A stretch of DNA of 64,000 bases. Source: an uncultured Gammaproteobacteria bacterium (GTDB taxonomy: Bacteria > Pseudomonadota > Gammaproteobacteria > UBA9214). Shown here piece by piece: positions 8,129-50,568 of the stretch (its first letter is position 1; every line of letters begins with the position of its first letter). The stretch covers positions 223,761 through 287,760 of the forward strand of contig CAVPAE010000007.1 in assembly GCA_963701455.1 (NCBI GenBank), read 5' to 3'. The notes beneath the pieces were generated by a model. The model saw nothing but the letters and a program-made list of their open reading frames with translations. It was not told the origin of the DNA and did not search any database. A program made the position numbers and the translations under genes.

Positions 8129-8178
8129 CTCCTGTCAGAACTGCAATGACCGCAGAGCCCGGCCATGCAGCGGAAAAG

Positions 8179-8550: not shown

Positions 8551-8593
8551 GGTGCTGCCCGTCGGCTGCAGACGCAGACGACGGGACAAACGG

Positions 8594-8995: not shown

Positions 8996-9067
8996 TCGCC
9001 TGCTGACAAGCCGCGCATGCGGCGAACGCCCTCCTCGCCCGGTCCGACCGTCTTTCAGCGGCAGCCC

Positions 9068-9529: not shown

Positions 9530-9689
9530 GACACTTCCCCTTCTATCCCGATTGAAAATTCCCGCCATTGTCGCACAAGCGGCGGCTGGAGAAATACGCG
9601 GCAACCTTCCCTGCGTACAGTGTTGCATGCAGGCCCGGCGGAAAAGCGTATGATGTCTCGCCGTCAATCCGACAAGCGGACAACCCGGC

Positions 9690-10223
9690 ATGAACCAGAC
9701 AACAAGTGACAACGTATTGATCAGCCAGTCGGTCGCCATCCTGGTCGACGGCAACAATATCGAGCGCAGCATCCACGCCGAAACCAACAAGCCGAATACC
9801 ATGCTGAACTTCGACACCCTGGTGCCGCGCCTGCTGGGCAATCGCGGCCTGAACCGGCTGGTGTACTTCCGCGAGGGCAAGCAGATTTCATCGAAACTCA
9901 GGGAACGCCTGCACGCCAATTACCACGGCTCGGTCCGCCCCTGCCACAAGAGCGCGGACATCCCGCTGTCCATCAAGGCCACCCAGCTCGCCAACAAGGT
10001 GGATACCATCATCATCATGTCCGGGGATTCCGACTATGTCGAGCTGGTGCGGCACCTGAAGGCCGAGGGCGTGCGCGTGGAAATCGCCGCCGTTCCCACC
10101 ACCACCTCGAGGCTGCTGATCGATGAGGCCGACTATTTCCACAAGATAACGAAGGATGACTGGTTCACCCTGGAACCCAAGAAGCCCGGCCGGAAAAATG
10201 CTTCAAAAGAGGCGCCGGAGTAG
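9690..10223 (+). CDS. NYN-domain (LabA-like) protein
   Basis: AILVDGNN...KSADIPLSIKA...DTIIIMSGDSDYVELVRHLKAEGVRVEIAAV. Confidence 0.8.
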   Translation: MNQTTSDNVLISQSVAILVDGNNIERSIHAETNKPNTMLNFDTLVPRLLGNRGLNRLVYFREGKQISSKLRERLHANYHGSVRPCHKSADIPLSIKATQLANKVDTIIIMSGDSDYVELVRHLKAEGVRVEIAAVPTTTSRLLIDEADYFHKITKDDWFTLEPKKPGRKNASKEAPE

Positions 10224-23519: not shown

Positions 23520-24989
23520 ATGCCCAGCCTCAGAGGCAAGATCCGTCTCGCCTACTCCAGCCTCGCGATCATCGTGATCACGCTCTGCGGGATTGCGGTC
23601 TTTGAGCTGATATTCCTGGAGCGCCAGGTACACGAGGGCGTGGCGGTCTCGGACCTGAACAACGCCGTGCTGGAAATGCGCCGCCAGGAGAAGAACCTGT
23701 TTCTTTATAAAGACCCCGACGCGCTGACGGATGCCGAGATGCATGCCGGGGCGGCCCTGGAAATCCTGCGCAGTGAACAGTCGGTATTGACCACTGTCTC
23801 GACCACCCACCTGCTGGCGAGCCTTGCGGACTCCATTGAGGCGTATCGCAGCATGCTTGGCGACTGGCGTACGGAGCAGGTGCCCCGCCACGACCTCGAA
23901 ACCGGACTGCGGGAACAGGGACAACAGATATCTTCCCTGGTAGACGGTATCGCTCGCAGCGAACGACTGGTGCTTGCCAGGGCGGTTCGCCAGTCCCGCG
24001 GGTGGCTGCTGCTCTCGATCGTGGTTGTCGGCGTGCTGGTGTTCCTGGTCGGCAGACACCTCGCCCTTGCCGTGGTCACCCCGCTGCGGCGCCTGGAACT
24101 GAACCTGGCACCGATCGCCGCCGGACGCTTCGACCACCTGGAGGCAGGCTCCAGCGACCGCGAGTTCGTTGCCTTTGCCGAGGCATTCAACCGCATGCTG
24201 CGGGAACTGGATACCCGCCGTCGCCGCATGCACCAGTCGGAAAAGCTGGCCTCCCTGGGTGTGCTGGTCGCGGGCGTGGCCCACGAGCTGAACAATCCCC
24301 TGGCCAACATTTCCTCATCCTGCCAACTACTGCTGGAGGAACTGGAGTCAGCCCACCCGGAACAACTCGCCACCTGGCTGCAACAAATCGACGGCGAAAC
24401 CGAACGCGCCCGGCGGATTGTGCTGGCACTGCTGGAATTCGGCAGGCAGCGCGAGCTGAACCTGGAACCCGTGCGCCTGGTGGACCTGTTCGAGAAGACG
24501 CGCATGCTGCTGGGCAACAACCTGCGCAGCAGCGCGGCACACCTCGAAATCGATGTACCCGACGACCTCGTGGTGCACGCGGACCCGCACCGCCTGCAGC
24601 AGGTCTTCATCAACTTGCTGCGCAATGCCCTGGATGCCGGCGGCGAGGGTGTGCAGATCCGCATCCTCGCCAGTGACTGCAACATTGCACACACCACGCT
24701 GCCTGCCGATGCCCAGGTGCTCGGCGAAGCGGACTGCACCCTGTCCGGCGACCGCTCCTGCGCCGAGATCCTGGTCGAGGACAACGGGCCCGGCATTCCC
24801 GCCGCGGTACTGCCGCAGGTCTTCGACCCGTTCTTCACCACCCGGGAACCCGGCAAGGGCATGGGCCTTGGCATGTACATCATTCAGGAAATCATTCTGG
24901 AACACGGCGGCTGCATCGCGGTCAACACGCGTCCCGCCAGCGGCACCCGCGTCACCATCCGGCTGCCACGCAAGGAGCGACAGACATGA
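23520..24989 (+). CDS. sensor histidine kinase (NtrB-like; TM, HAMP, HisKA, HATPase_c)
   Basis: H-box AHELNNPL, then N, G1 (DNGPGI) and G2 (GKGMGLGM) boxes. The stop overlaps the regulator start as ATGA at 24986-24989. Confidence 0.9.
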   Translation: MPSLRGKIRLAYSSLAIIVITLCGIAVFELIFLERQVHEGVAVSDLNNAVLEMRRQEKNLFLYKDPDALTDAEMHAGAALEILRSEQSVLTTVSTTHLLASLADSIEAYRSMLGDWRTEQVPRHDLETGLREQGQQISSLVDGIARSERLVLARAVRQSRGWLLLSIVVVGVLVFLVGRHLALAVVTPLRRLELNLAPIAAGRFDHLEAGSSDREFVAFAEAFNRMLRELDTRRRRMHQSEKLASLGVLVAGVAHELNNPLANISSSCQLLLEELESAHPEQLATWLQQIDGETERARRIVLALLEFGRQRELNLEPVRLVDLFEKTRMLLGNNLRSSAAHLEIDVPDDLVVHADPHRLQQVFINLLRNALDAGGEGVQIRILASDCNIAHTTLPADAQVLGEADCTLSGDRSCAEILVEDNGPGIPAAVLPQVFDPFFTTREPGKGMGLGMYIIQEIILEHGGCIAVNTRPASGTRVTIRLPRKERQT

Positions 24990-26356
24990 GTATCGATACC
25001 GGCAGCGGCGGCAGCCTGCTGATCGTCGATGACGAGGCAGTCGCCGTAGAAAACCTGGCCCATGCTTTTCGCAAGGCCGGTTACACGGTAACAACGCGCA
25101 CCACCGGCCCCGGCGGCATCGAGGCACTGGAAAATAACCGCTTCGACGTGGTGCTGACCGACGTGCGCATGGAACATATCGACGGCATGGCAATCCTGAA
25201 CCGCGCCCTGGAACTCGATCCGGATGCCGCGGTGGTACTGATCACCGGTCACGCCACCCTGGGCTCAGCGGTTGCCGCCATGCGCGCCGGCGCCTACCAC
25301 TACATCGCCAAGCCGTTTCGCCTGGACGAGGTCCGCAAGGTCGTCGCCAACGCCATGGAACGTGCACACCTGCGGCGTGAAAACCGGCAACTGCGCCACC
25401 AGGTGAATGACAGCCACAGTGGAACCCGCATCATCACCCAGGATGCCTCCATGCAACGACTGCTGGAGACGGCACGGCAGATTGCACCCACCGACTGCAA
25501 CGTCCTCATCGCCGGTGAAAGCGGCACCGGCAAGGAACTGCTCGCGCGCTATATCCACCTGCAAAGTGGACGCGCGGAAAAACCGTTCCTTGCCATCAAC
25601 TGCGGCGCCCTGCAGGAGGAATTGCTTGCCAATGAACTGTTCGGCCACGAGAAAGGTGCATTCACCGGCGCTGGCGAGAAACGCACCGGCCTGATCGAGG
25701 CCGCAGACGGCGGCACCCTGCTGCTGGACGAAATCGGCGACATGTCGCTGGCCATGCAGGTCAAGCTGTTGCGCGTGCTCCAGGAACGCGAAGTCCTGCA
25801 CCTCGGCAGCACCCGGCCGGTGCCGGTCGATGTGCGTTTTCTTGCCGCGACCAATCGCGACCTGCGCAACGAGGTCGATGCGGGACGTTTCCGCCACGAC
25901 CTCTACTTCCGCCTCGACGTCGTAACACTGGAACTACCGCCGCTGGCCGAGCGGCGCGACGATATCCCCCTGCTCGCCTACTATTTCCTCAAGAAAGTTG
26001 CGCATCGCATGGGACGGCCCGTGGCGGATATCGAACCCGAGGCCATGTCCCTGCTGCGCGACTATGACTACCCGGGAAACGTCCGCGAACTGGAAAATGT
26101 GATCGAACGCGGCGTAGCCCTGGCCACCGGTCGCAAACTTACACCCACGCAGCTGCCCCCGTCACTGGTAGACCAGGCGGTGCACGTCGTGCGCACCACA
26201 GGAGACCAGCTGCCCACACTGGAAGAGCGGGAGACGCAATATATTCGCTGGGTGCTGAAACGCACCGGCGGCAATCGCACCAGGGCGGCGGAAATCCTCG
26301 GAATCGACCGCGTGTCACTGTGGAGAAAGCTGAAAAACCTCGATACCACCGAGTAA
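24986..26356 (+). CDS. sigma-54-dependent response regulator (NtrC family: REC, AAA+, HTH)
   Basis: Receiver Asp region VVLTDVRM. Walker [15 protein letters not shown] motif present. C-terminal HTH. Confidence 0.9.
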
Positions 26357-26763
26357 ACCCGACAGTTGCATAAATTTCGGCCTGACAATTCATTTCACCC
26401 CCCTGATTTACAGGATGCAATGACTATTTCATGCTATTTCCGGAATTCACACCTGGCGAGCTTCTGGTCCGATCTTGCAGGAGCACCGTGAATACTCCAC
26501 CAGCTAAAGCCGGTGGCTTCGGGTTACGGCTAAAAGCCGGATTGATCGGCCCTTCGGCCGATTGCCTCGATATCCACCGCCGATGGCATTCCACGCTCCC
26601 TGTGCACTGCTCTCGCCGATACACGATCTACTGACCTCGTCATTGCGGCGCAGGCCGCAATCCAGATTCACCCGTGGACTGATTTCTCTGGATGCCGGCC
26701 TGCGCCGGCATGACGACTTTCCGTCTGAAGGCGGGGGGGGTGTACTGATCCCCTGTTCGAGAC

Positions 26764-26831
26764 TCTAAAGGGCATAAACGGTTTTCATGCGCGAATCACG
26801 GCTGTAAGCCGTTTATGCCCTTTAGGGTGCT
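26764..26831. other. perfect 17-bp inverted repeat (ctaaagggcataaacgg ... ccgtttatgccctttag) with 33-nt loop, within a 580-bp structured non-coding gap
   Basis: Read directly from the sequence. Additional hairpins at 26644-26661 (ttgcggc gcag gccgcaa) and 26693-26712 (atgccggc ctgc gccggcat). Confidence 0.7.
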
Positions 26832-26937
26832 CCTACAGCAAGAATTTTTGCAATGATCGGGTAAAGTCTACCCCGACAATCTCGCGACAGAGTGTCAATC
26901 AGCGGCCGAATCACGCGCCAGGCGTAACCCCGGACAC

Positions 26938-28553
26938 TCAGAAGTCAGCCCGGTAGCCCAGGTTAATAAAATAGCTGTTGCTCTCTTCAGAGCCATCAAC
27001 AATTTCGCGGTCCGAATATTCCCCCCCGATTTCGGCTTCCAGGCGCAGCCTGCGCTTGATCCGATAGTCCAGCCGCAGTGACGGGCGGTAGGTGATCTGG
27101 TCCGTGCCGTCATCCCGGTTATTGCTGTAATCCATTCTGAAGCGTGGGTTGACCCGAAATTCACTGGTGACGGGATATCGCGTATTTAAATTCAGGGAAT
27201 AGATATCCCTGTTGCCCGCATCGGAATAACGCAGACCTGCTATCGTAATATCACCCGGCTTTACCAGATTGCTTCCGACGAGTTGCAGGTTGTAAACAAA
27301 ATCGGTGCCTGTTCCATCCGTCGCCGCAACACCACCTGAAGCGCTGGTACCAGAAAGGTTAAATGCCGTGACATCACCGCTTACCTGCAGTTTTTCGGTT
27401 ATTGGATGCGACACGCCCAGGGTCGCAAGCTTGCTGGTTGCCGTGCGATCACGCGCCAGATCCTGAATTTCACTGGCTGCAAGGCTGTTCTGCAGCTCAT
27501 CGATTGAGCTGACAGCCTGGCCCACCAGCGCATTCCGGCTCGTAAGGATCGGACTCCTTCTGTAATCTGCGACCACGTTGACCGTGGTCTTGTCCGAGAA
27601 TGTCCAGTTCCCGAGCAGCTGCCCGATATTCAGTTCGTTGTAATGTATGTCGTAGTCGACGAGACTGAAAAACGAACGAGCGGCGTCAAAATATCTGAGC
27701 TCACCACCAACCGCACGACGATCTGTGATTCCATCCACCTGCTGCTCGATAACAAAGGCATTTGCATCCCACCCCTTCGCAAACCCTTCAGTCTCGAGAG
27801 TCAACCCATAGAAGTATCTGTCCGTACCTTCGAAAGCATCAGTCGATGATTCTACCGGGAATCCGCCAACCGCACTCACCGAGAACTTTTTGCCCAAAGG
27901 GACCCCCAGCAACAGGCCGTCAAAGCGCCCCAATACTCCTCCGGTACTGCGGGACTGTCGTCCGATTCGCATGGACATGTCGCTCTGTGTTGAGCTGGCA
28001 TCAAAGTACAGTCGAACTCACAGTGGTATCAGTGTTAGCACCGTCATCAATAAAGTCATGCAAATAGCCACCGGTAAAGCGGGCCTGTAGATTGTAGTCG
28101 CTACCGCGCAGCCGGGCAGTGACATCCATATTGCTGTCCAGAGATGACTGGGTCAGCGTCGTGAGTTCATTGTCATCATCAATATTGGTTGTATTCTCAT
28201 TACGCCGGTAGTACTGGGAAACTCCACCGAACACATCCCACTGCGACTCCGCTTCATTACGCGACTTGCTCCGGGTTGTGCCCAGTTTCTCCCTGGGCTG
28301 TTTTCTGGCAGTCATCAGGGCCGCAAAACGTTGTTTGACACGTTCAGCACCCTCTCCTTCCGGGTAACGCTCAAGATAAGTCCTGTATACCAGTTCTCGC
28401 CTGCGCCAGCTGGTCGTTGCGTTCACGGGCCAGTCCCAGGTATTCCAGGGAATCCTGGCTGTACTGGTTATCGGGCTGCTCCAGAATCTTGGTATATAGC
28501 CTGATTGCCCCGGCATAGTCCTTGTCGGTCATATTGTTACGCGCCTCCTGCAC
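26938..28553 (-). pseudogene. TPR-domain + outer-membrane beta-barrel protein, interrupted by at least 2 frameshifts (may merge with the upstream SPOR-like ORF)
   Basis: C-terminus ends ...GYRADF, an aromatic terminal residue typical of OM beta-barrels. Alternating beta-strand pattern throughout 26938-28516. A one-base shift near 28003-28020 joins ...SSTVL to FDASSTQSDMSMRIG.... A shift near 28385 joins ...LGLARERNDQLAQAR to RELVYRTYLERYPEG... (TPR). Confidence 0.55.
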
Positions 28554-29572
28554 CAGGGAAGCAAGTCGCTCCGGCGTGACAACATTGCCCGCAGCAACTT
28601 CACGCGGAACAACGACTGCAGACGCGTAGTCGCCTCTGGTTGGGCTGTTGTGCCCGCACCGGATCCGGACAGGTTACCGGCGAGCATGGATTCACCGGAA
28701 CGGGTCCTTTCTGCTACTGATGCTTTGGCAACCCAGGAATCCGGGTAATAGGCCTTGAGTTCTTCCCTGACAATATCTGCTTGCTGCACCTTCCTGAAAA
28801 ACCCGAATCGCAGCCGGTACCATGTCTTGCCGTCCTTGACAAAGGTGGTGGTGTAAACGCGATATGCCTGGGATTCACCAGGATCTGGCAAATCCATGAA
28901 TACTTCCGGATCAGGCAAATCATTTACCTCGAACGGCGTGACTGATGAGGCCAGATTAATAACATAAGGATAGAGCGTGGCAGTGGTCGCCGCCTCCACC
29001 GGGACTTCCGTATTGGCAGCAGTCGCTTCAGTCATGATCGCGACAGGTGTTGTCGAATCGCTATCAGGCCGGTTTCCCGGCCCCGCGTGAAGTACGTCTT
29101 CCACTGCAGACGCACCCGGATTTCCCCTGCTTTGCGGATGCTTTACAACTACATCGATGGTCCTGAAATCTCCTGAACGAGGTATCTCGAATTCCACCTC
29201 CTTCTGAAAGCGCAAGGTAATGCTTGTATTCGCGAATCCGGCGCCTTCGTAGGTCACGTCGTACAATGGCATATCTCTGTCCGGACTCCACTGTATCGTC
29301 TGCTCCCCCAGCAATGTATCCCCGGCAGAGCCGAGTGACGGGGCCGGTTCCACAAAGATGCGCAGCAGATCACCGGATCGTTCCGGCGCATGTGATTTGT
29401 AGCTCACCGGAATGGTAAGCCTGATATGGATAGTCGACTGATCCCGGCCAGGTGTGATATCGATGCTGTCGATAACATCAATGGCGGCCTGCGCTCCCGT
29501 AGTAACCGGCACACAACATATAACGCATAACAGCCGCGCGAACCTCGCCATGCCGTGAAATATATTTTTCAT
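28529..29572 (-). CDS. periplasmic protein with SPOR-like domain; 3' end uncertain (probable frameshift into TPR frame near 28640-28680)
   Basis: Signal peptide MKNIFHGMARFARLLCVICCVPVTTGAQA. SPOR-like segment KTWYRLRFGFFRKVQQADIVREELKAYYPDSWV. The alternative frame past 28680 reads protein-like (...VVVPREVAAGNVVTPERLASLVQEARNNMTDKDYAG...). Confidence 0.5.
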   Translation of the reverse strand: MKNIFHGMARFARLLCVICCVPVTTGAQAAIDVIDSIDITPGRDQSTIHIRLTIPVSYKSHAPERSGDLLRIFVEPAPSLGSAGDTLLGEQTIQWSPDRDMPLYDVTYEGAGFANTSITLRFQKEVEFEIPRSGDFRTIDVVVKHPQSRGNPGASAVEDVLHAGPGNRPDSDSTTPVAIMTEATAANTEVPVEAATTATLYPYVINLASSVTPFEVNDLPDPEVFMDLPDPGESQAYRVYTTTFVKDGKTWYRLRFGFFRKVQQADIVREELKAYYPDSWVAKASVAERTRSGESMLAGNLSGSGAGTTAQPEATTRLQSLFRVKLLRAMLSRRSDLLPWCRRRVTI

Positions 29573-30060
29573 TCGCTGACAGGGTCCACAACCGGTTGCT
29601 GCTGGACTTCCGGCGCAACCTCGTCCACATAAACCACGATACTGCGAGAATCCCTGCCCTGTTCCACCCAGAAATCGACACAACGATTGAAGAACAGGGT
29701 CAGATACGGACCACCTTCGATATCTCCCTCATAAACCACCTCGTCGAGCGGCAGGTTTTCATAGTCGAAGGGAACGAGAGTTTCCCGCTTGTGCAAGGCA
29801 TTCAGGTCATCCGCGCTGATCCCAAAAGGCCTGATCCTGATACGCAGTTCCTTGCCAGACTCATACGGGAAGTGGCTGTCATACCTTACCCGCGTTGTCA
29901 GACTGACCTGCACTGTCGTCACAGCATCGGTCTCGTACACATCCAGGGTATCGAGTATTTTCTTTCTGACCGGCTCGGAATCCACCAGCTGCGTGAATAG
30001 GAGCACGCCAAGCGCCAGCAAGATTCCGGCTCGTGCTTTTCGTCCAGGCATCTGCATCAC
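29569..30060 (-). CDS. secreted hypothetical protein (163 aa)
   Basis: Signal peptide (MMQMPGRKARAGILLALGVLLFT). Its stop overlaps the downstream start as ATGA at 29569-29572. Confidence 0.5.
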   Translation of the reverse strand: MMQMPGRKARAGILLALGVLLFTQLVDSEPVRKKILDTLDVYETDAVTTVQVSLTTRVRYDSHFPYESGKELRIRIRPFGISADDLNALHKRETLVPFDYENLPLDEVVYEGDIEGGPYLTLFFNRCVDFWVEQGRDSRSIVVYVDEVAPEVQQQPVVDPVSE

Positions 30061-30070: not shown

Positions 30071-33000
30071 TCAGAAATCGCTACTGGTTGTACGGTGCTC
30101 AGGCCCGGGGCGACGGTCCTTGATCGTCGTCATGCTGCTGTCCGTATACATATGACAGCTTCCCGAACAGTCCCTCAACTCGCTGACACTGTAGGTCGTA
30201 TCGGGATTCTCGTATTTCTTGTGTGCGCTCTGCTTGAAATCATTCGCATGACACGCTGCACAATCCGGCACATACGCAGGTGCCGACCAGTTCACTACCT
30301 CACTGTTTGCCTGGTGACACGCAGTACAGAGAAGATTACTTCTGTGGTCTCCCGGATATGACGCCGAGGTATGCTGGAAATCCAGTGGCACCCAGTAAGA
30401 CGTCGTATGACATGCGTCGCACTGTAAACTGGTGACGAAGTGCCCGCCGGGCTTGCCGGTTGCCGTTGTACCGTTATGACAATTCGAGCATGAACCCGTG
30501 ACTTGGTCGTGATTAAAGCTGGCCGGCAGCCATGCGATAGTCGAATGGCATTCATCGCATTGCGCCGACGTGATGACATGTCCGGATGGCTTTCCGGTTG
30601 AGGTAACCCCGTTGTGGCAGGTAGTACATGTTCCGGGGGTCACATTGGCATGATCGAATACCGCCGGCAGCCAGGCGCTCGTGCTGTGACAGTCATCGCA
30701 GGTGTTGTTGCTGGCGATGTGGTTGACCGACTTGCCGGGCGCCGTGCTGCCATCGTGGCAGCTGAAGCAGGTCCCCAGCACGTCGGCATGGTCCACCCGG
30801 GTCACCGGTAGCCAGGCGCTCGTGCTGTGACAGTCATCGCACAGCGCCGTGGTCTGGATATGGGTACTGTTCTTGCCCGTGGCCGTGGTGCCGTCGTGGC
30901 AGCTCGCGCAGTTGCCGCTCACCGTGCTGTGATCGAAGGTCGCCGGTAGCCAGGCGCTCGTGCTGTGACAGTCATCGCAGGTGTTGTTGCTGGCGATGTG
31001 ATTGGCCGTCTTGCCGGGCGCCGTGCTGCCATCGTGGCAGCTGAAGCAGGTCCCCAGCACGTCGGCATGGTCCACCCGGGTCACCGGCAGCCAGCTACTG
31101 GTGCCGTGGCAGTCCTCGCACAACGCCGTGGTCTGGATGTGGGTCGGGTTCTTGCCCGTGGCCGTGGCACCGTCATGACAGCTCGCGCAGTTGCCGCTCA
31201 CCGTGCTGTGATCGAAGGTCGCCGGCAGCCAGGCACTCGTGCTGTGACAGTCATCGCAGGTGTTGTTGCTGGCGATGTGGTTGACCGACTTGCCGGGCGC
31301 CGTGCTGCCGTCGTGGCAGCTGAAGCAGGTCCCCAGCACGTCGGCATGGTCCACCCGGATCACCGGCAGCCAGCTACTGGTGCCGTGGCAGTCCTCGCAC
31401 AACGCCGTGGTCTGGATGTGGGTCGGGTTCTTGCCCGTGGCCGTGGCACCGTCATGACAGCTCGCGCAGTTGCCGCTCACCGTGCTGTGATCGAAGGTCG
31501 CCGGCAGCCAGGCACTCGTGCTGTGACAGTCATCGCAGGTGTTGTTGCTGGCGATGTGGTTGACCGACTTGCCGGGCGCCGTGCTGCCATCGTGGCAGCT
31601 GAAGCAGGTCCCCAGCACGTCGGCATGGTCCACCCGGGTCACCGGGATCCAGCTGCTGGTGCCGTGGCAGTCCTCGCACAGCGCCGTGGTCTGGATATGG
31701 GTACTGTTCTTGCCCGTGGCCGTGGTGCCGTCGTGGCAGCTCGCGCAGTTGCCGCTCACCGTGCTGTGATCGAAGGTCGCCGGTAGCCAGGCGCTCGTGC
31801 TGTGACAGTCATCGCAGGTGTTGTTGCTGGCGATGTGGTTGGCCGTCTTGCCGGGCGCCGTGCTGCCATCGTGGCAGCTGAAGCAGGTCCCCAGCACGTC
31901 GGCATGGTCCACCCGGGTCACCGGCAGCCAGCTACTGGTGCCGTGGCAGTCCTCGCACAACGCCGTGGTCTGGATGTGGGTCGGGTTCTTGCCCGTGGCC
32001 GTGGCACCGTCGTGACAGCTCGCGCAGTTGCCGCTCACCGTGCTGTGATCGAAGGTCGCCGGTAGCCAGGCGCTCGTGCTGTGACAGTCATCGCAGGTGT
32101 TGTTGCTGGCGATGTGATTGGCCGTCTTGCCGGGCGCCGTGCTGCCATCGTGGCAGCTGAAGCAGGTCCCCAGCACGTCGGCATGGTCCACCCGGGTCAC
32201 CGGCAGCCAGCTACTGGTGCCGTGGCAGTCCTCGCACAGCGCCGTGGTCTGGATATGGGTACTGTTCTTGCCCGTGGCCGTGGTGCCGTCGTGGCAGCTC
32301 GCGCAGTTGCCGCTCACCGTGCTGTGATCGAAGGTCGCCGGCAGCCAGGCGGTGGTGCTGTGACAGTCCTCGCAGGTCGCGGCACTGGGGATGTGGTTCG
32401 TACTCTTGCCGATGGCGGTGGCACCGTCGTGGCAGCTCACGCAGGTCCCCAGTACCTCGGCATGATCGACCTGGATCGCCGGCAGCCAGGCCGTCGTCTG
32501 GTGGCAGGCCTCGCAGATCGTCGTGGTCTGGATGTGGGTCGGATTCTTGCCGGTGGCCGCGGTGCCGTCGTGACAGCTCGCGCAGTTGCCGCTCACCGTG
32601 CTGTGATCGAAGGTCGCCGGTAGCCAGGCGCTCGTGCTGTGACAGTCATCGCAGGTGTTGTTGCTGGCGATGTGGTTCGCACTCTTGCCGATGGCGGTGG
32701 CACCGTCGTGGCAGCTCACGCAGGTCCCCAGCACCTCGGCATGATCGACCTGGATCGCCGGCAGCCAGGCCGTCGTCAGGTGGCAGGCCTCGCAGATCGT
32801 CGTGGTCTGGATGTGGGTACTGTTCTTGCCGGTGGCCGCGGTGCCGTCGTGGCAGCTCGCACAGTTACCGGTGACGTTGCTGTGGTCGAAGGTCGCCGGC
32901 AGCCAGGCGGTGGTGCTGTGACAATCCTCGCAGGTCGCGGCACTGGGGATGTGGTTCGTACTCTTGCCGATGGCGGTGGCACCGTCGTGGCAACTCACGC

Positions 33001-33808
33001 AGGTCCCCAGTACCTCGGCATGATCGACCTGGATCGCCGGCAGCCACGCCGTCGTCAGGTGGCAGGCCTCGCAGACCGTGCTGGTCTGGATGTGTGAGCG
33101 GCGCTTGCCCGTGGCAACGATGCCGTCATGGCAGCTCGAACAGGCACCAGTGATATTGGCATGGTCGAAACTCGCATTCGCCCAGGCGATGGTGGTATGG
33201 CAATCCTCGCAGGTATCGGCACTCGGAACGTGGTGATTCGACTTACCTGTGGCCGTAGCACCATCATGGCAACTTGAGCATGTAGCGGTAACATTACTGT
33301 GATCGAAGGTCGCAGTTGTCCAGGCAGTTGTGGTATGGCAGTCCTCGCAAGTATCGGCACTTGAGATATGATTGGTGGTCTTGCCGGTCGATGTTGATCC
33401 ATCATGACAAGTTGCGCAGGATCCAATAACTGCATCGTGACTCATGTTAGCCAGTGGTTTCCAGTACGCATCCGTATGACATTCTTCACAAACAAGGTTC
33501 GTCTGGATATGATCAGACGGCATCTTGTCTGCCGGCATCGAGCTGGCCTGGTTGTGACAAACCCCGCATTCAACCGGTGTTCCCTCAAATATTCCACGCA
33601 GGTGACAACTCGTACAGGGTGCATTTTTATGCGCGCCTTCAAGCGGGAATCCTGTAGAAAAATGATCAAACCCGGCATTGGTTCCGAGCGCCATCACACC
33701 ATGTGACAGCAAGAACAGGAAACAGACAAACAGGAACATAACAGTCGCAGGCCGGCGGATTTCCCTCGACCCGGCCATTGACATGGTGACTTGTTGTTTA
33801 GGCTTCAT
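30071..33808 (-). CDS. giant c-type cytochrome with about 50 heme-binding motifs (49 CxxCH + 1 CX3CH)
   Basis: Signal peptide ...FLFLLSHGVMA. My hand count gives 49 CxxCH plus CSGSCH near the C-terminus. About nine tandem 93-aa tetraheme modules, with one extra His per heme (FDHS, THIQ, VDHA, NHIA). Start taken at ATG 33808 (MKPKQQ); ORF ATG 33847 is an alternative. Confidence 0.85.
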   Translation of the reverse strand: MKPKQQVTMSMAGSREIRRPATVMFLFVCFLFLLSHGVMALGTNAGFDHFSTGFPLEGAHKNAPCTSCHLRGIFEGTPVECGVCHNQASSMPADKMPSDHIQTNLVCEECHTDAYWKPLANMSHDAVIGSCATCHDGSTSTGKTTNHISSADTCEDCHTTTAWTTATFDHSNVTATCSSCHDGATATGKSNHHVPSADTCEDCHTTIAWANASFDHANITGACSSCHDGIVATGKRRSHIQTSTVCEACHLTTAWLPAIQVDHAEVLGTCVSCHDGATAIGKSTNHIPSAATCEDCHSTTAWLPATFDHSNVTGNCASCHDGTAATGKNSTHIQTTTICEACHLTTAWLPAIQVDHAEVLGTCVSCHDGATAIGKSANHIASNNTCDDCHSTSAWLPATFDHSTVSGNCASCHDGTAATGKNPTHIQTTTICEACHQTTAWLPAIQVDHAEVLGTCVSCHDGATAIGKSTNHIPSAATCEDCHSTTAWLPATFDHSTVSGNCASCHDGTTATGKNSTHIQTTALCEDCHGTSSWLPVTRVDHADVLGTCFSCHDGSTAPGKTANHIASNNTCDDCHSTSAWLPATFDHSTVSGNCASCHDGATATGKNPTHIQTTALCEDCHGTSSWLPVTRVDHADVLGTCFSCHDGSTAPGKTANHIASNNTCDDCHSTSAWLPATFDHSTVSGNCASCHDGTTATGKNSTHIQTTALCEDCHGTSSWIPVTRVDHADVLGTCFSCHDGSTAPGKSVNHIASNNTCDDCHSTSAWLPATFDHSTVSGNCASCHDGATATGKNPTHIQTTALCEDCHGTSSWLPVIRVDHADVLGTCFSCHDGSTAPGKSVNHIASNNTCDDCHSTSAWLPATFDHSTVSGNCASCHDGATATGKNPTHIQTTALCEDCHGTSSWLPVTRVDHADVLGTCFSCHDGSTAPGKTANHIASNNTCDDCHSTSAWLPATFDHSTVSGNCASCHDGTTATGKNSTHIQTTALCDDCHSTSAWLPVTRVDHADVLGTCFSCHDGSTAPGKSVNHIASNNTCDDCHSTSAWLPAVFDHANVTPGTCTTCHNGVTSTGKPSGHVITSAQCDECHSTIAWLPASFNHDQVTGSCSNCHNGTTATGKPGGHFVTSLQCDACHTTSYWVPLDFQHTSASYPGDHRSNLLCTACHQANSEVVNWSAPAYVPDCAACHANDFKQSAHKKYENPDTTYSVSELRDCSGSCHMYTDSSMTTIKDRRPGPEHRTTSSDF
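30500..33050. repeat. tandem array of about nine 279-bp units (93-aa tetraheme modules) inside the 50-heme cytochrome gene, several copies near-identical at DNA level
   Basis: Identical antisense ORF peptides recur at 31260, 31539 and 31818 (279-bp spacing). 30965 and 32081 share peptide text 1116 bp (4 x 279) apart. This is coding, not a CRISPR array. Confidence 0.85.
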
Positions 33809-33861
33809 ATGCTGTTCTGTTTCCTGAATTAGCAATACCCGGAACACCGGAAATAGCGCCC

Positions 33862-35445
33862 TTACCTGATTTCCACCACGTCAAACGATTCCGTCGTGTG
33901 GCAACGATCGCAATACTTCCCAAACTCTCCGTCATGCACATCCTCCTGGCGATGACAGGAAACACAGGTACCTGGCAGCCTGATTTCTCCTGTTATTTCC
34001 TCAACGTGACAGGACAGACAATCAATATCCTGATGCGCACCATCCAGTTCGTAATTCGTGTGAACGTTGTGTTCAAACTCCCACAAAGACCAGTCATTCG
34101 GGTTATGACACGACTCACAGCGCGGGCCCAAGCGGCGTTCATGCACATCATCCGGCTGATGACAAACATTGCATTCACGTGCCGCCTGTTTGTATGCCGA
34201 TGTCAGATGGCACTCCTCGCACGGGGTAACCGCATGCAAACCGAGAAGCGGGAAATCGGTCATATCGTGTTCGAAACGCACCTTCCCGCCCCAGCCATCC
34301 TCGTCATGGCATTTCTCACAACGCTTGCCCTCCTGGCCCTCGTGCACATCATCCGCTCCATGACAACTGAAACATTCCGTTGCAAGTTTTTCCTCGTAAA
34401 CCTCACCCCTGTGACAGGATGAGCAACTGGCTTCCTGATGCTTCCCGCGCAATGGAAACTCCGTTTCCCGATCATGCTCGTACTTCACCTTGTCCCAGCC
34501 ACGCGTGCTGTGGCAGGCCTGGCATTTATTCCCGTATCGGCCAGCGTGCTTGTCGTCACCGCGATGACAGTCGATACATTCCGTGCCCAGTGCCGTGTCA
34601 TACAGTTTCCCCACATGGCAGACATCGCACTTCACTTCCCGGTGACTTCCGGAAAGCGAATATCCCGTATCACGATCATGATCGAACCGGGAGCGGTCCC
34701 AGCCTGCCTCTGAATGACAGTCTTTGCATTTCTGCCCGTAACGACCGGCATGCACATCATTCAGCCTGTGGCAGGTATGGCATTCCCCGGGGATATCCTT
34801 GTATTTGTGATTGACGTGGCAACTGTCACAGGCCAGTTCTGCATGCTTTTCCCGAAGCACGAAATCCGTGTCGTCGTGGTTGAATTCCTGGCTGGTCCAA
34901 CTGCGCTCGGCATGGCAATCCGCACACTGCTCACCAAGCCTGCCTGCATGAATGTCGTCTCCCTCATGGCATGAGACGCACTCCTGCGGCGCATCGCGGA
35001 ATTTTTTCCCTTCAGCGTGGCAGGCTGCACAACGCGTCGCAATATGCGCACCCTTTAGCAAGTAATCCGTTTCATCATGTGCAAAGGTTTCAACATCCAG
35101 CTGGACTACGTCTGCATCGCGACCCTTGTGATCGCTATGGCAATGACTGCACTCTGCATTCCTTGCCACTCCCAACCCGTGGAAACCTGTCTGCTGCCGA
35201 ATATCTGCATCGACTTCCTCGTGACAGTCCCGGCACAGCATGCTTTGGCTCTCCTTGCTGAAGGGCTTGTGGCACTTTTCACACTCTTCCTCGTATTTCA
35301 TGTGCCCCTCTATCACCTGCCCCGGTTTGACCAGTGATTCGATTCCTGCAAACACAGTCGAACCGAAGCACATAGCCGCCACAAAGAGGGTGGCGGCAAT
35401 ACAAATCCGGTACCGTTTCACAGTGACTTTTCTTGCATGGGCCAT
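33862..35445 (-). CDS. 21-heme c-type cytochrome (7 x tri-heme repeat)
   Basis: Signal peptide MAHARKVTVKRYRICIAATLFVAAMCFGSTVFA. 21 CxxCH motifs in a repeating CxxCH-x~15-CxxCH-xxDDxHxGxxGxxCxxCH-x4-W-x5-FxH pattern. Its start shares one nucleotide with the upstream stop (TGATG at 35443-35447). Confidence 0.85.
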   Translation of the reverse strand: MAHARKVTVKRYRICIAATLFVAAMCFGSTVFAGIESLVKPGQVIEGHMKYEEECEKCHKPFSKESQSMLCRDCHEEVDADIRQQTGFHGLGVARNAECSHCHSDHKGRDADVVQLDVETFAHDETDYLLKGAHIATRCAACHAEGKKFRDAPQECVSCHEGDDIHAGRLGEQCADCHAERSWTSQEFNHDDTDFVLREKHAELACDSCHVNHKYKDIPGECHTCHRLNDVHAGRYGQKCKDCHSEAGWDRSRFDHDRDTGYSLSGSHREVKCDVCHVGKLYDTALGTECIDCHRGDDKHAGRYGNKCQACHSTRGWDKVKYEHDRETEFPLRGKHQEASCSSCHRGEVYEEKLATECFSCHGADDVHEGQEGKRCEKCHDEDGWGGKVRFEHDMTDFPLLGLHAVTPCEECHLTSAYKQAARECNVCHQPDDVHERRLGPRCESCHNPNDWSLWEFEHNVHTNYELDGAHQDIDCLSCHVEEITGEIRLPGTCVSCHRQEDVHDGEFGKYCDRCHTTESFDVVEIR

Positions 35446-36413
35446 CAGTACATGTGCACGGCATACACATGGACAAGACCGGCAATCAAAAGCATGATGA
35501 AGAGAGGCAGATGGAGAACGTGCCACATGGAAAACAACCGCTCGAAGAATGAAAAGCCGGCCACCTTGCGGACCGTATACAGGTATGTGCGCAGGTAATA
35601 CCCTGCCTTGCGGTAATAATAGCGGCGTTGCTCTCGAGTCAGTCTCTCGCGAACAATCGGTGTCCTGAAGAATCGGCGCAACTCCAGCAGGGATACCAGC
35701 AGGCACCAGCGTGATCTGATGTTGATCACCAGCATACTGACCAGGCAAGAGAGAAAGCCGTTTTGGGTTGCCACCGCCTTGTCTTCAATACGCTGCAGCC
35801 GGACCTTCATTCCCGGCATTTCCTTGAAGACGGGTCCGAGTTCCGCCATGGCCATTGCTGTATCGCTGCCCAGATCCTCAAGATCTGCTTTTCGGCCATA
35901 CAGACCGTAGTGGACTTTTGAATATATAAATCTGCCGATCAGGCCACTGCCGGCAACCAGCAGCATACTGAACAGGGCGACATTCCCGTTTATGGAACCG
36001 AGCTGGAAGTTACAATGCAGGAGAATACAAACAGGCCCCAGGATACCCAGCAACATGTGCCCCCTGAACCAGTGGCGCACCGGTCCGAAGCCCTGTGCCC
36101 AGCGCGCATGCTTGCGTAGCGGATACAGCATGAGCAACAGCATCATCGTGCCTCCTGTTATACCAAGGGCATAACCGATACCTAGCTCCGGTGTGAGATA
36201 AAGGTAACTGCCATACTTCCATCCGCAATACACAAGCAGCAGGACCAACAGGTGGAAGACCGGTAACTCCGGAACCCGGGAAGACCTCTCACGTCCCTCA
36301 TTATCCCGTTTGATAATGGGTTCATTTGCAGGGTCCTGAGGGTATCCCGCGACGCCTGCGGCTTGAGTTATCGAGTTCTTGTCAATATCAAAAACAGTCT
36401 GTACTTCACTCAT
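35445..36413 (-). CDS. polytopic membrane protein with conserved His in TM helices; putative b-type cytochrome / quinol-interacting subunit
   Basis: About 6 TM helices. His residues sit in TM1 (FHLL), TM3 (HWFRGHMLLG...LLHCNF) and TM6 (MWHVLHLP...LVHVYAVHMY). Translationally coupled to the 21-heme gene. Start at MSEVQ (36413); ATG 36503 is an alternative. Confidence 0.5.
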   Translation of the reverse strand: MSEVQTVFDIDKNSITQAAGVAGYPQDPANEPIIKRDNEGRERSSRVPELPVFHLLVLLLVYCGWKYGSYLYLTPELGIGYALGITGGTMMLLLMLYPLRKHARWAQGFGPVRHWFRGHMLLGILGPVCILLHCNFQLGSINGNVALFSMLLVAGSGLIGRFIYSKVHYGLYGRKADLEDLGSDTAMAMAELGPVFKEMPGMKVRLQRIEDKAVATQNGFLSCLVSMLVINIRSRWCLLVSLLELRRFFRTPIVRERLTREQRRYYYRKAGYYLRTYLYTVRKVAGFSFFERLFSMWHVLHLPLFIMLLIAGLVHVYAVHMY

Positions 36414-36766
36414 TACCGCCCCCGTTCCCCAGGATGTACAAACACCGCAATATCTGTACCTGCATATCGGACCTGCAGCGAAAGTTCTCAACCAGCCAGG
36501 CAACCCAGAAATACGTATCCGGAGGGGCTCTCATGCTTGAGAAATTCCATAACCCACTGCTTTTACTAGTGAATACACTGCACCACAGAACATAAACACA
36601 GAATCACACAAATGTGACGGACTTCACTATTTGGGAGGATATTCCCATTTGTTGATATACTATGCAACATTCAATTACAGGATTGCCGATGCAGTCACAC
36701 AACAGAAAAGCTTTCAGAAAACATAATTCACATGCGAGCACAGAACCCGCGTACAGGTAGACACCG

Positions 36767-38068
36767 ATGACCGATACCGCACTTTATTTCTATCTGACCC
36801 CGATGCTGTTCATCTGGGGCATTTACTATGGATTTCGCACCAGGAGGCATCGCCGCGCCACCCGCTTGCGCGATGACGCACAAAAGTCCGGTCTTCTGGC
36901 TCCGGCATCACTCCACCCCGTGATAGATTCATGCCGCTGCCTGGGTTGTCGGTCCTGCGTAAGCGCCTGCCCGGAAAAATCAGTACTGGGAATTATTGAT
37001 AGCAAATCCGTGCTGGTCAGCCCTGCCAACTGCATCGGGCACGGCGCATGCAAAACCGCCTGCCCGATGAACGCAATCACACTGGTGTTTGGCACATCCG
37101 AACGCGGCGTCGATATTCCACTGGTTGCTCCCGACTACGAGACCAATGTTCCCGGTCTTTTTATTGCCGGAGAACTGGGCGGGATGGGGCTGATTCGCAA
37201 CGCCGTTGAACAGGGCCGTCAGGCAATGGCATCCATCATCGAGCACTGTCGGAAGGGAAACAGGCAGGAACTGGATGTCGTAATCGTCGGCGCCGGACCC
37301 GCGGGTCTTTCAGCCAGCCTGGCCGCACAGGAAAGCGGCCTGCGCTACGCAACACTCGAACAGGATTCTCTCGGGGGAACGGTATCCCATTTCCCGCGAG
37401 GAAAAATTGTCATGACAGCTCCTGTAAAGCTACCCCAGGTCGGCACAGTTAAATTCAGGGAGATATCCAAGGAAGCACTGCTGGAATTCTGGGAGGACGT
37501 CATCAGGAAGACAGGCGTGCAGATCATATTCAGGGAACGCGTTGAAGCCATCACGCCTCTTGCAGGAGGACTAGAAGTCAGGACTCCCGGGAATGTCTAT
37601 CGCACCAAATGCGTCCTGCTCGCGATTGGCCGGCGCGGCACACCGCGCAAGCTGGATGTGCCTGGCGAAGAATCAACAAAAGTCGTCTACCGGCTGATAG
37701 ATCCAGAGCAATACCGCAATCAGAAAGTACTGGTTGTCGGGGGTGGAGACAGCGCCCTGGAGGCCGCGATAAGTATTGCCGAGCAGCCCGGCACGGATGT
37801 CAGCCTGTCTTATCGCAGCGCTGCATTTTCCCGCGCCAAGGAAAAGAACCGGCAGAAGATTGATGACTTGAACAATTCAGGCCGCTTGAAAGTCTTCCTG
37901 AATTCCACGGTCAGCGAAATACATGAGAACAGGGTAGAAATAGACCAGCAAGGCAACATGATTGATATCGGGAATGATGCCGTGATCGTCTGTGCCGGTG
38001 GCATTTTACCTACACCCTTCCTGAAAGAAATCGGCGTCGAGGTGGAAACAAAATATGGCACGCAGTAA
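36767..38068 (+). CDS. membrane-anchored 4Fe-4S ferredoxin-domain + FAD/NAD(P)-binding pyridine nucleotide-disulfide oxidoreductase-like protein
   Basis: N-terminal TM helix. Two Cys clusters (CRCLGCRSCVSACP and CIGHGACKTACP). Two Rossmann GxGxxG motifs (VVIVGAGPAG, VLVVGGGDSA). Confidence 0.7.
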   Translation: MTDTALYFYLTPMLFIWGIYYGFRTRRHRRATRLRDDAQKSGLLAPASLHPVIDSCRCLGCRSCVSACPEKSVLGIIDSKSVLVSPANCIGHGACKTACPMNAITLVFGTSERGVDIPLVAPDYETNVPGLFIAGELGGMGLIRNAVEQGRQAMASIIEHCRKGNRQELDVVIVGAGPAGLSASLAAQESGLRYATLEQDSLGGTVSHFPRGKIVMTAPVKLPQVGTVKFREISKEALLEFWEDVIRKTGVQIIFRERVEAITPLAGGLEVRTPGNVYRTKCVLLAIGRRGTPRKLDVPGEESTKVVYRLIDPEQYRNQKVLVVGGGDSALEAAISIAEQPGTDVSLSYRSAAFSRAKEKNRQKIDDLNNSGRLKVFLNSTVSEIHENRVEIDQQGNMIDIGNDAVIVCAGGILPTPFLKEIGVEVETKYGTQ

Positions 38069-44742: not shown

Positions 44743-44908
44743 TCTGAACAAGTCCCGACTCGTCATTCCGGCGCATGCCGGACAAAAGCGCAAGGCGCGT
44801 TGAACGCCCGGAGGGCGGCCCGCAGGGTGAGCGAAGCGAAGCATCCTGGAAATCAACAAGCTGGACCCCGGCTTTCGCCGGGGTGACGACTTATTCAGGA
44901 TTTCCTTG
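44743..44908 (+). repeat. ~167-bp interspersed repeat family C, full copy
   Basis: About 90% identical to 46618-46784. Contains the hairpins cattccggcgcatgccgg and ccccggctttcgccgggg. Confidence 0.85.
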
Positions 44909-46596: not shown

Positions 46597-46617
46597 CAGA
46601 ATCACCTTGAGGAGAAA

Positions 46618-46784
46618 CTGAACAAGTCCTGATCCGTCATTCCGGCGCATGCCGGACAAAAGTGCATGGCGCGTTGAACGCCCGGAGGGCGGCCCGCAGG
46701 GCGAGCGAAGCGAGTCATCCAGGGAAATCAACAAGCTGGACCCCGGCCTTCGCCGGGGTGACGACTTATTCAGGGTTTCCTTGA
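46618..46784 (+). repeat. ~167-bp interspersed repeat family C, full copy
   Basis: Direct repeat of 44743-44908. The two copies flank the protease gene. Confidence 0.85.
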
Positions 46785-46804
46785 GCTTCAGGCTTTTCAT
46801 GGCA

Positions 46805-47308: not shown

Positions 47309-47420
47309 GGTTTTATTCCCCTTCAGTCGTGATCAAACAATAGTCCGATCTCTCTACCAGTTCGTCAGTCATTGCAAGCAGTGGCGGGTACCTCCCCCAC
47401 TGGAGAGGTACCCGGAGCAC

Positions 47421-49244: not shown

Positions 49245-49265
49245 GTCTATTCCCCCGCCCTGCGT

Positions 49266-50540: not shown

Positions 50541-50568
50541 GGACTTATCCCCCGGTTCCGGTCTGTTG

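Follow-up and report, generated by a model that had tools for sequence, protein, structure and literature searches.

The minus strand of the window, a 64,000-nucleotide stretch of DNA from an uncultured gammaproteobacterium, holds between positions 29572 and 26938 the coding sequence of one protein, divided over three reading frames. Synteny, motifs and homology show that the disrupted gene encodes the putative outer-membrane porin of a PCC3-type porin-cytochrome cluster. A local consensus or assembly error is the most likely cause of the indels, at slightly better than even chances. It is favoured over a very recent pseudogene because the indels are tightly clustered. We infer this artefactual origin, and the porin gene is probably intact in the organism.

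One porin gene in three reading frames

Four minus-strand ORFs cover the gene: 29683/29572-28529, 28553-28371, 28516-28001 and 27978-26938, in frames 1, 2, 1 and 0 (position modulo 3). Once the frames are joined, the reconstructed product has 877 aa (~877 codons). The porin is a single ORF of 850-885 aa in more than 100 relatives, with identity of up to 81% and coverage of 100%. The reconstructed fusion matches 189 database proteins at E <= 0.001, and the top 40 read it as single ORFs with coverage of 97-100%, which excludes a chance resemblance. At least 120 single-ORF homologues cover 97-100% of the fusion. L001, L002 and L092-L096 are intact orthologue loci that share their upstream genes with the window. 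Separate, independently translated genes for the SPOR, TPR and barrel parts were absent among more than 500 relatives. Homology shows these segments to be parts of one ancestral ORF of ~880 aa. The gene starts with the ATG at 29572, which shares bases with the preceding stop codon (ATGA), and the orthologues have the same overlap.

The initial annotation had read protein-like sequence running on across three frames of the minus strand, and both the ORF frames and the orthologue alignment agree. It had left the choice between one large disrupted gene and several indel errors; the orthologues are a single ORF, and the window copy carries three shifts of the one-nucleotide class. The comparison with orthologous loci that it proposed gave an intact single ORF, collinear with the reconstructed porin.

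The reconstructed porin comprises a signal peptide, a beta-sandwich (residues 34-144), a SPOR domain (203-301), probable TPR helices (334-418) and a barrel (446-875). Its AF2 model has a pLDDT of 74.8. The barrel is modelled with about 22 strands over residues 446-875 (block pLDDT mostly 80-95). Foldseek matched it to OccK, FadL, MOMP, PelB, AlgE and usher structures (E = 1e-9 to 1e-7). Pfam SPOR (PF05036) scored 26.6 bits against a cut-off of 21, at residues 235-282 and profile positions 28-75 of 76. The same family is precomputed for many porin orthologues, and the model shows a beta-alpha-beta-beta-type fold (SPOR) at 203-301. The TPR_6 match on the window porin is weak (17.4 bits vs a cut-off of 26.3). 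The orthologues have precomputed TPR matches (PF13174/PF13432), and the model presents five paired helices at 334-418. The single-ORF homologues, the AF2 model and the barrel matches define the whole gene as 26938-29572.

Position of the frame breaks

We mapped the breaks against intact orthologue proteins and orthologue DNA (L001: 84.7% nucleotide identity, 2633 columns). The three breaks, J1 to J3, span 613 bp: a -1 shift at ~28625/6, a +1 shift at ~28396 and a +1 shift at ~28013.

J1 (28625-28626) is a net -1 shift with one base missing (act ac_ gcg), as placed by DNA and protein alignment. In the alignment with the orthologue this shows up as a 4-nt gap, which falls in a variable linker and can be placed anywhere within about 28620-28650. 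The junction reads ...AQPEATT-ASAVVVPREV... The frame change that had been proposed near 28640-28680 does exist, but the alignment puts it at 28626/28625. J2 (28394-28397) consists of one extra base, GCGA[G]AACTG, and the G at 28396 is the most parsimonious in the DNA alignment. The orthologue counterpart is GCGAAAATG, and the true junction is LAQA(R/K)-LVYRTYL. A change of frame had been expected near 28385. It is present, although aligned to 28394-28397, and the residues 'RE' read there come from the wrong frame. J3 (28012-28013) is one extra base, GTTC[G]ACTGTAC. By DNA alignment and the AF2 model, it falls inside the fourth barrel strand. Its orthologue counterpart is GTTCACTGTAC and its true junction is TTVSS-LYFDASS. 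The interval 28003-28020, given earlier for this break, contains the extra base at 28012/28013, but the 'TVL' attached to it is out of frame. None of J1, J2 and J3 lies in a homopolymer, as the initial annotation had remarked. In the orthologue-like frame, the sequences that span the junctions are PEATT-ASAVVV, LAQA(K/R)LVYRTYL and TTVSSLYFDASS.

The segments between the breaks were delimited by ORF reading, with Pfam SPOR for the first and protein alignment for the others. Segment A (28626-29572, frame 1) holds the signal peptide and the beta-sandwich, followed by SPOR and the first part of the linker. Left uncorrected, its ORF continues in the wrong frame until it meets the stop at 28531-28529, with 32 junk residues. 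Segment B (28398-28625, frame 2) holds the linker and the first TPR helices (...VVVPREVAAGNVVTPERLASLVQEARNNMTDKDYAGAIRLY...LGLARERNDQLAQA). Segment C (28013-28393, frame 1), for which the AF2 model was also used, comprises the remaining TPR helices, a linker and the first barrel strands (LVYRTYLERYPEGEG...DTTVSS). The remainder of the barrel is in segment D (26938-28011, frame 0; LYFDASSTQSDMSMRIGRQSRSTGGVLGRFDG...GYRADF). Premature stops lie at 28531-28529, at 28373-28371 (after J2) and at 28003-28001 (after J3). With these stops and the three shifts, an intact, translatable porin ORF is absent. The ORF as written cannot make the porin. What its first fragment would yield is a secreted stub of beta-sandwich and SPOR. 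The break in the barrel falls within strand four, and the fragment that carries the rest of the barrel has no signal peptide.

The PCC3 cluster and its neighbours

The cluster runs on the minus strand from 36503 to 26938, in the order inner-membrane protein, 21-haem cytochrome, 49-haem cytochrome, 163-aa protein and porin. PCC3 is a putative porin-cytochrome c cluster (He et al. 2017, PMC5566968). Its inner-membrane protein has ~300 aa, five TM helices, two WX3HX13H motifs and one SGXXG. Its cytochromes have a median of 21 haems (periplasmic) and 34 haems (extracellular), a low number of amino acids per haem and repetitive sequence (PMC5566968).

By the motif set of PMC5566968, the gene at 35445-36503 encodes the PCC3 inner-membrane protein, di-haem-b-like and intact. 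It has 352 aa, 5 hydrophobic TM-like segments, WFRGH...H at 145 and WHVLH...H at 327 (WX3HX13H), and SGLIG at 186. The two cytochromes c were recognized by CXXCH counts and Pfam, and both genes are intact. The presumed periplasmic one (33862-35445) has 21 CXXCH motifs, with 29.9 aa per haem. The giant, presumed extracellular one (30071-33847) has 49 motifs, 25.7 aa per haem and 8.9 copies of a 279-nt repeat; 80 of 91 related loci have a homologue. Pfam gave cytochrome c7/c3 and MtrC-like domains on the neighbours. The 163-aa secreted protein (29569-30060, intact) is a paralogue of the N-terminal beta-sandwich of the porin by BLASTP (29% identity, E = 7e-14). In 81 of the 91 loci, its gene is the one that immediately precedes the porin gene.

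The gene order of the cluster is repeated in L004, L009, L051 and L061, and its synteny is kept in 80-81 of the 91 loci. L061 is Amphritea atlantica DSM 18887, where the 21- and 63-haem counts of PMC5566968 were reproduced. It holds a porin homologue, with 40% identity to the window porin over residues 192-877 (54% for the cytochrome). Other neighbours include an FeS/FAD oxidoreductase. An ankyrin/Sel1-repeat protein is encoded nearby, and REP-like repeats are also found nearby. Just downstream of the porin gene, at a palindromic-repeat-rich gap, synteny with the closest relatives is lost. This break shows real genome flux at the porin locus.

In the porin of the relatives, a periplasmic beta-sandwich, a SPOR domain (putatively peptidoglycan-binding) and a TPR module precede the ~22-strand barrel. 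Following the PCC3 model, the barrel would let the cytochrome chain cross the outer membrane. Trans-outer-membrane electron conduction by PCC3 is a hypothesis of the literature (PMC5566968). The transcripts of S. lithotrophicus ES-1 show PCC3 down-regulated on Fe(II), and a role in Fe(II) oxidation is not supported. We know of no experiment showing electron conduction by PCC3.

Selection pressure on the porin gene

Apart from the indels, the porin gene looks fully constrained, judging from its substitutions. The terminal branch of the window porin has a dN/dS (NG86) of 0.22, and the intact orthologues range from 0.19 to 0.27. This branch is long (dS 0.13). After the three corrections, the porin has no in-frame stop codons and 0 private changes at invariant columns of its alignment. 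It shows three changes at columns that are >= 90% conserved. They are conservative (L>F, L>I, T>S), and the intact orthologues have no fewer. An old, decaying pseudogene was thus rejected: omega is 0.22, stops are absent, the invariant columns are kept and the lesions fall within 613 bp. A chimeric or recombinant patch was also sought by sliding identity against four orthologues, with no switch of nearest relative and no jump of divergence at the junctions.

A second broken gene

An unrelated YyaL/SSP411 thioredoxin-domain gene (3461-5527, minus strand), taken as comparator, is broken too, as seen with its homologues and a DNA alignment to L097. Single bases are added to it in three places, about 4346, 4166 and 4134 (frames 1>0>2>1), within 212 bp. 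The YyaL homologues are single ORFs of 646 aa, with 85-89% identity. In a homology scan of the 25.5 kb compared with references, no gene besides yyaL and the porin was out of frame. The broken genes are 2 of ~46. A codon-usage frame scan flagged several sites, of which those at 8100-9950, 35400-35900, 46700-47500 and 49244/49266 are normal gene boundaries, and the gaps between ORFs contain intact small genes. Frameshifts throughout the genome, or a genome rich in pseudogenes, were rejected as explanations, as only yyaL and the porin are broken in the 25.5 kb and these four flagged sites are normal. The array of 8.9 copies of 279 nt in the cytochrome gene, the hardest region to assemble, is free of frame errors.

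The porin and yyaL have six indels. Five of them are extra bases, and none is in a homopolymer. No inserted base or motif is common to the six: both porin insertions resemble a G before A, and those of yyaL differ. For the 613-bp span of the three porin indels, P is 0.14 under a uniform distribution in the gene and 0.0115 under one over the 9.6-kb operon. For the clustering in the porin and yyaL, the joint within-gene P is 0.0046. Six uniform events over 25.5 kb would fall in two or fewer such patches with P = 5e-5.

Origin of the indels

Several observations argue for a sequence error. The dN/dS of 0.22 is within the orthologue range, stops are absent and the conserved columns are kept. The yyaL gene repeats the pattern, with three extra bases in 212 bp, and the remaining genes in the 25.5 kb are in frame. 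Spontaneous bacterial indels are deletion-biased, so that a set with mostly extra bases (5/6) is atypical. There is also a precedent in the PCC3 porin of L. ochracea, split by a sequencing error (PMC5566968). Against an error, the indels all lie outside homopolymers, where 454, Ion Torrent and Nanopore errors usually occur, and the repeat array of the cytochrome gene, in spite of its difficulty, has no errors. At a dS of 0.13, a very recent inactivation would scarcely shift dN/dS or the counts of conserved columns. Synteny ends just downstream of the porin gene, in the palindromic-repeat-rich gap. Exact-protein look-ups with four window proteins gave no match to the window species or to an independent copy. 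In the searches for a conspecific, the best identity was 65-70% among the matches listed for genome contigs and 63-70% for metagenome contigs.

A genuine, very recent pseudogene is a serious competitor, with somewhat less than an even chance. The porin, and yyaL independently, would have taken three frame-shifting indels. The conduit would be without its outer-membrane part, and the cytochrome genes would not yet have decayed. A dead gene is classically marked by several disabling mutations, which here lie outside homopolymers, in the contexts least prone to sequencing errors, and 2 of ~46 genes are broken. The ankyrin/Sel1-repeat protein, the REP-like repeats and the synteny break fit genome flux or host association, and tubeworm endosymbionts are among the carriers of PCC3 (PMC5566968). 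However, selection is not relaxed (omega 0.22), nonsense codons are absent and the conserved residues are kept. The four partner genes are intact, including the 3.8-kb repetitive cytochrome gene. The indels are clustered (operon P = 0.0115; joint within-gene P = 0.0046 with yyaL), and five of the six are insertions.

It is improbable that the indels are real and arose by localised mutation, with several +1 insertions placed together in tracts of 200-600 bp (e.g. by error-prone repair synthesis) and two unrelated genes hit. On this reading, the porin would only recently have been disabled, in a PCC3 cytochrome conduit that is still whole in its other parts.

Programmed recoding (ribosomal frameshifting or transcriptional slippage) or phase variation, by which the full-length porin would be made or switched, is very improbable and effectively refuted by the orthologue comparison. 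The out-of-frame stretch at J3 ends in CTT TGA T, which resembles by chance the +1 site of prfB, CUU UGA C. Unlike prfB, this motif is not conserved, has no stimulatory element (a Shine-Dalgarno-like stimulator is absent upstream), and a shift at CTT TGA would swap the nearly invariant Y522 for unrelated residues instead of restoring conserved ones. The orthologues read one frame at all three junctions, including in 85%-identical DNA, so there is no conserved shift site. Repeats or homopolymers for slippage are absent at the junctions, the -1, +1 and +1 shifts would all need to be efficient, and an unrelated housekeeping-type gene (yyaL) has a like pattern.

Separate adjoining genes for a SPOR protein, a small TPR protein and a barrel protein are the least credible reading, with a negligible chance. 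The ATGA at 28534-28531, at the end of the SPOR ORF, is a stop/start overlap typical of coupled genes, but it is not a gene boundary because every orthologue reads through it. Homology continues over all three junctions in other frames, and the last 32 residues of the SPOR ORF are without counterpart in any homologue. The barrel fragment begins within a beta-strand and without a signal peptide, and more than 100 relatives have a single ORF.

Implications

For annotation, the four apparent small ORFs are one PCC3 porin gene, to be marked as frameshifted/pseudo or corrected. The sequence record merits a flag for at least two local indel patches. If the lesions are real, the organism has a complete set of PCC3 cytochromes minus the outer-membrane conduit, which bears on predicting extracellular electron transfer from genomes. 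If localised mutation were the cause, the window would show the first step by which a system for extracellular electron transfer is lost, and its carrier may be a host-associated sulfur oxidiser. PCC3 itself was already described (He et al. 2017, PMC5566968), and the finding of a disrupted porin is real but ordinary.

The beta-sandwich, SPOR and TPR modules and the conserved 163-aa paralogue are found with the PCC3 porins of a large gammaproteobacterial, desulfobacterotal and nitrospirotal clade. These periplasmic modules and the conserved 163-aa partner suggest a conduit anchored to peptidoglycan. It is a modest by-product of the analysis, a detail absent from the cited PCC3 papers.

Comparison with known systems

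The exporters PelB, AlgK/AlgE, BcsC and PgaA have a periplasmic TPR module and a C-terminal barrel, an architecture that is also predicted for the window porin. The Foldseek matches include PelBC (9h80) and AlgE (3rbh), with target-normalised TM-scores of 0.3-0.4 and sequence identity of ~10%. However, a polysaccharide synthase and a glycosyltransferase are both absent from the window operon, and the partners that never vary are multihaem cytochromes. An exopolysaccharide exporter of the PelB/BcsC/PgaA/AlgE type was rejected on the neighbouring genes, which encode cytochromes, an inner-membrane protein and an FeS/FAD oxidoreductase.

The role proposed for the window porin is like that of MtrB, MtoB and PioB (MtrCAB-type), in which an outer-membrane barrel encloses a wire of multihaem cytochrome and is partnered by an extracellular cytochrome. 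The window porin gave no detected sequence homology to these proteins, and Pfam gave no MtrB-type match. The MtrB barrel has 26 strands and is without a SPOR/TPR extension, whereas the barrel of the window porin has about 22 and carries one.

The closest likeness is with the PCC3 clusters of S. lithotrophicus (Slit_0867-0870) and A. atlantica DSM 18887, which share gene order and content with the window (PMC5566968). They have an inner-membrane protein of ~300-350 aa with two WX3HX13H motifs, a 21-haem and a very large cytochrome (49 haems in the window, 63 in A. atlantica) and a porin. The window porin differs from the published ones in being frame-shifted three times. In its clade, the PCC3 porin has an N-terminal extension of beta-sandwich, SPOR and TPR, and the 163-aa beta-sandwich paralogue sits between the cytochrome and the porin. 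The cited PCC3 papers name four components and mention neither these modules nor the paralogue. Our literature search on SPOR/TPR in PCC3 porins found nothing relevant.

Leptothrix ochracea L12 offers the nearest parallel for the disruption. He et al. 2017 (PMC5566968, legend of Fig. 6) describe its PCC3 porin gene as 'wrongly split to two', on account of a sequencing error. It is the same family, with ORFs split by a frame shift in a draft/metagenomic assembly. Its error is in a homopolymer of A's, whereas the window porin has three indels, all outside homopolymers.

A single porin gene read in three frames

On the minus strand, the porin gene (29572-26938) is divided into four consecutive ORFs. 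They span 29683/29572-28529 (position modulo 3 = 1), 28553-28371 (2), 28516-28001 (1) and 27978-26938 (0), and agree with the initial annotation, where protein-like sequence runs on from frame to frame. We compared the conceptual fusion of the four pieces with a collection of 5.8 billion proteins, and 189 matched at E <= 0.001. Each of the best 40 of these 189 is one protein, roughly 810-886 aa long, and covers 97-100% of the fusion; the top match (P0001, 884 aa) has 81% identity. Their sequences are uninterrupted across the three frame shifts (J1, J2 and J3, in 5'-3' order). These single ORFs support the initial proposal of one large gene, disrupted or hit by indel errors, and contradict separate SPOR, TPR and barrel genes. 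J1 presents an ATGA stop/start overlap, ruled out as a gene boundary because the homologues continue in the other frame. Likewise, the SPOR ORF ends in 32 residues without a counterpart in any homologue, whereas the other frame has one.

The lesions were mapped against the intact orthologue DNA of the related locus L001 (84.7% nucleotide identity, 2633 columns). Three differences change the frame, and the sole in-frame length difference is 18 nt at 29117-29138. J1 (~28626, minus strand) is a 4-nt gap in a variable linker, with a net -1 shift. J2 (28396, minus) and J3 (28013, minus) are one extra base each: GCGA[G]AACTG against GCGAAAATG and GTTC[G]ACTGTAC against GTTCACTGTAC, respectively. Comparison with a second locus, L002, had an identical outcome. 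None of the three sites lies in a homopolymer or repeat, as first noticed for homopolymers. The correct junctions join ...PEATT to ASAVVVP... (J1), ...LAQA(R/K) to LVYRTYL... (J2) and ...TTVSS to LYFDASS... (J3). The frame-corrected gene has 2634 nt (877 codons and a stop) without an internal stop.

Pfam detects a SPOR domain in ORF 1 (26.6 bits, cut-off 21); in the remaining ORFs, TPR and porin signals are below threshold. An AlphaFold2 model (32-sequence alignment, mean pLDDT 74.8) starts with a signal-peptide helix, followed by a beta-sandwich at residues 34-144 and a SPOR-like domain at 203-301; five TPR-like helices (334-418) then precede a barrel with roughly 22 strands (446-875). With Foldseek against the PDB, the barrel matches OccK, FadL, MOMP, PelB, AlgE and an usher barrel (E = 1e-9 to 1e-7). 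An exopolysaccharide exporter was rejected, since the operon content is wrong. Taken literally, the sequence would let ORF 1 encode a secreted beta-sandwich/SPOR stub ending in junk residues. J3, at residue ~520, would interrupt the fourth strand of the modelled barrel, and the barrel ORF (346 aa) would lack a signal peptide. No porin could then be made.

A second broken gene and the clustering of indels

Frames were checked with a codon-usage frame scan and a homology scan using all ORFs of related loci. The homology-checked stretches are 1-12.3 kb and 26.9-40.1 kb (25.5 kb). Besides the porin, only a YyaL/SSP411 thioredoxin-domain gene (yyaL, 3461-5527, minus) is broken there, with frames 1>0>2>1; other suspected sites were normal gene boundaries. 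The yyaL homologues are single 646-aa ORFs (85-89% identity), and the window copy has three single extra bases (~4346, ~4166, ~4134), tightly clustered like the porin indels.

In the porin gene, all three indels fall within 613 bp; under a uniform distribution this has P = 0.14 within the gene and P = 0.0115 over the operon. Those of yyaL span 212 bp (P = 0.033), which gives a joint within-gene probability of 0.0046. Were six events placed uniformly over the 25.5 kb, they would occupy at most two such patches with P = 5e-5.

Sequence artefact or recent pseudogene

Exact look-ups of four window proteins gave no match. A conspecific copy was found neither in the genome scan (65-70% identity at best, among the matches listed) nor in the metagenome scan (63-70% at best). 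We judged the question by indirect tests. The terminal branch of the window porin has a Nei-Gojobori dN/dS of 0.22 (dN 0.0285, dS 0.128), and four intact orthologues have 0.19-0.27. The reconstructed porin shows zero private changes at columns invariant in the other 31 sequences. At columns at least 90% conserved it has three conservative changes, no more than most intact orthologues. No chimeric patch was found in the gene.

We lean slightly towards an artefact of the sequence record. Two short indel patches in otherwise pristine genes would reflect a local low-quality consensus. This fits better than neutral decay, under which a dead gene or operon should show lesions scattered along it and some lost constraint; neither is seen. 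A sequencing-error split of the same gene is reported in L. ochracea (He et al., PMC5566968).

A genuine, recent porin pseudogene has a substantial, if somewhat less than even, chance. The lesions lie outside homopolymers, and no frame error occurs in the 279-nt x 8.9 repeat array of the cytochrome gene; both count against an artefact. On a branch of dS 0.13, dN/dS would not register an inactivation that happened very recently, and a real rearrangement lies just downstream. Against the pseudogene, five of the six indels in porin and yyaL are extra bases; in bacteria, spontaneous indels are biased towards deletion. Programmed frameshifting or phase variation is rejected: the sites are not conserved and carry neither slippery nor repeated sequence, three different shifts would be needed, yyaL carries the same pattern, and the CTT TGA at J3 simply results from the shift of TAC TTT GAT. 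The frame-shifted porin matters chiefly for annotation and quality control.

The downstream breakpoint and other window genes

In the closest relatives (L001, L092, L095), genes for a Zn-peptidase, ApbE, a Na/Ca exchanger and Usp come after the porin gene. Their place in the window is taken by a palindrome-rich 581-bp gap (26357-26937) and a convergent histidine kinase/sigma-54 response-regulator pair (23520-26356). This difference marks a rearrangement breakpoint at the porin 3' end. The gap, where synteny ends, is full of inverted repeats resembling a REP-like GC-rich palindrome, GTCACCCCGGCGAAGGCCGGGGTCCAG. The latter lies just downstream of three genes (3431-3457, 44861-44887, 46736-46762; zero copies expected by chance), and related palindromes occupy 26637-26716 and 26762-26828.

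A run of outer-surface-type genes (47421-57070, minus) encodes a 1726-aa protein without Pfam match, two multicopper-oxidase-like proteins (50569-52230 and 49266-50540, minus) and a 607-aa protein. A subtilase with a MopE-like Cu-binding motif follows (44920-46839). Together they may form a metal-oxidation or copper-handling island. A DsrC/TusE-family gene (8597-8965, minus) near CopD-like, NnrU-like and ThiF-like genes is syntenic with L097 and consistent with a sulfur-oxidising gammaproteobacterium.

The PCC3 cluster

Upstream of the porin, on the same strand, lie genes for a 163-aa secreted protein (29569-30060), a 1258-aa cytochrome with 49 CXXCH motifs (30071-33847), a cytochrome with 21, and a membrane protein of 352 aa that has five hydrophobic segments, two copies of the WX3HX13H motif and one SGxxG motif. 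Composition and diagnostic motifs are those of the putative "PCC3" porin-cytochrome c cluster (He et al. 2017, PMC5566968), which was later surveyed in Gallionellaceae (PMC9900912). The disrupted gene is thus a frame-shifted copy of a known kind, the PCC3 porin. An electron-conduit role is hypothesised in the literature; in Sideroxydans lithotrophicus ES-1, PCC3 clusters are down-regulated on Fe(II) (PMC8788666).

The 49-haem gene includes a tandem array of 8.9 units, each of 279 nt or 93 aa (30651-33138, minus; 91% identity, no indels). CXXCH counts in this family differ widely, with 37 (L004), 57 (L009), 63 (L061) and 73 (L051), presumably varying by repeat expansion and contraction.

Divergent from the inner-membrane-protein gene is an FeS (2x4Fe-4S) and FAD/NAD(P) pyridine-nucleotide-disulfide oxidoreductase (36767-38068, plus). 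At least 30 loci have it beside the cluster (60-79% identity), so it is a candidate electron partner on the cytoplasmic side. Next to it, a 696-aa protein with Sel1 and many ankyrin repeats (38055-40145, plus) has homologues (~60% identity) at the corresponding place in L004 and L023; it may have a functional link to the cluster or hint at host association.

Of the 91 loci fetched, 80 have the giant cytochrome gene and 81 the gene for the 163-aa protein, a paralogue of the porin's N-terminal beta-sandwich (29% identity, E = 7e-14). In those 81 loci the latter gene lies between those of the giant cytochrome and porin, as in L001 (738-1226) and L061 (9399-9866). This ~160-aa protein is absent from the component lists in PMC5566968, PMC9900912 and PMC8788666, and may be a fifth PCC3 component. 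Mildly new features are limited to the beta-sandwich/SPOR/TPR extension that this porin clade carries and to the conserved paralogous partner.

The link to a described system is direct. L061 is Amphritea atlantica DSM 18887, whose PCC3 cytochromes were reported with 63 and 21 haems (PMC5566968). This locus encodes both, together with an inner-membrane protein with two motifs, an ORF of 156 aa and a porin homologue of 742 aa.
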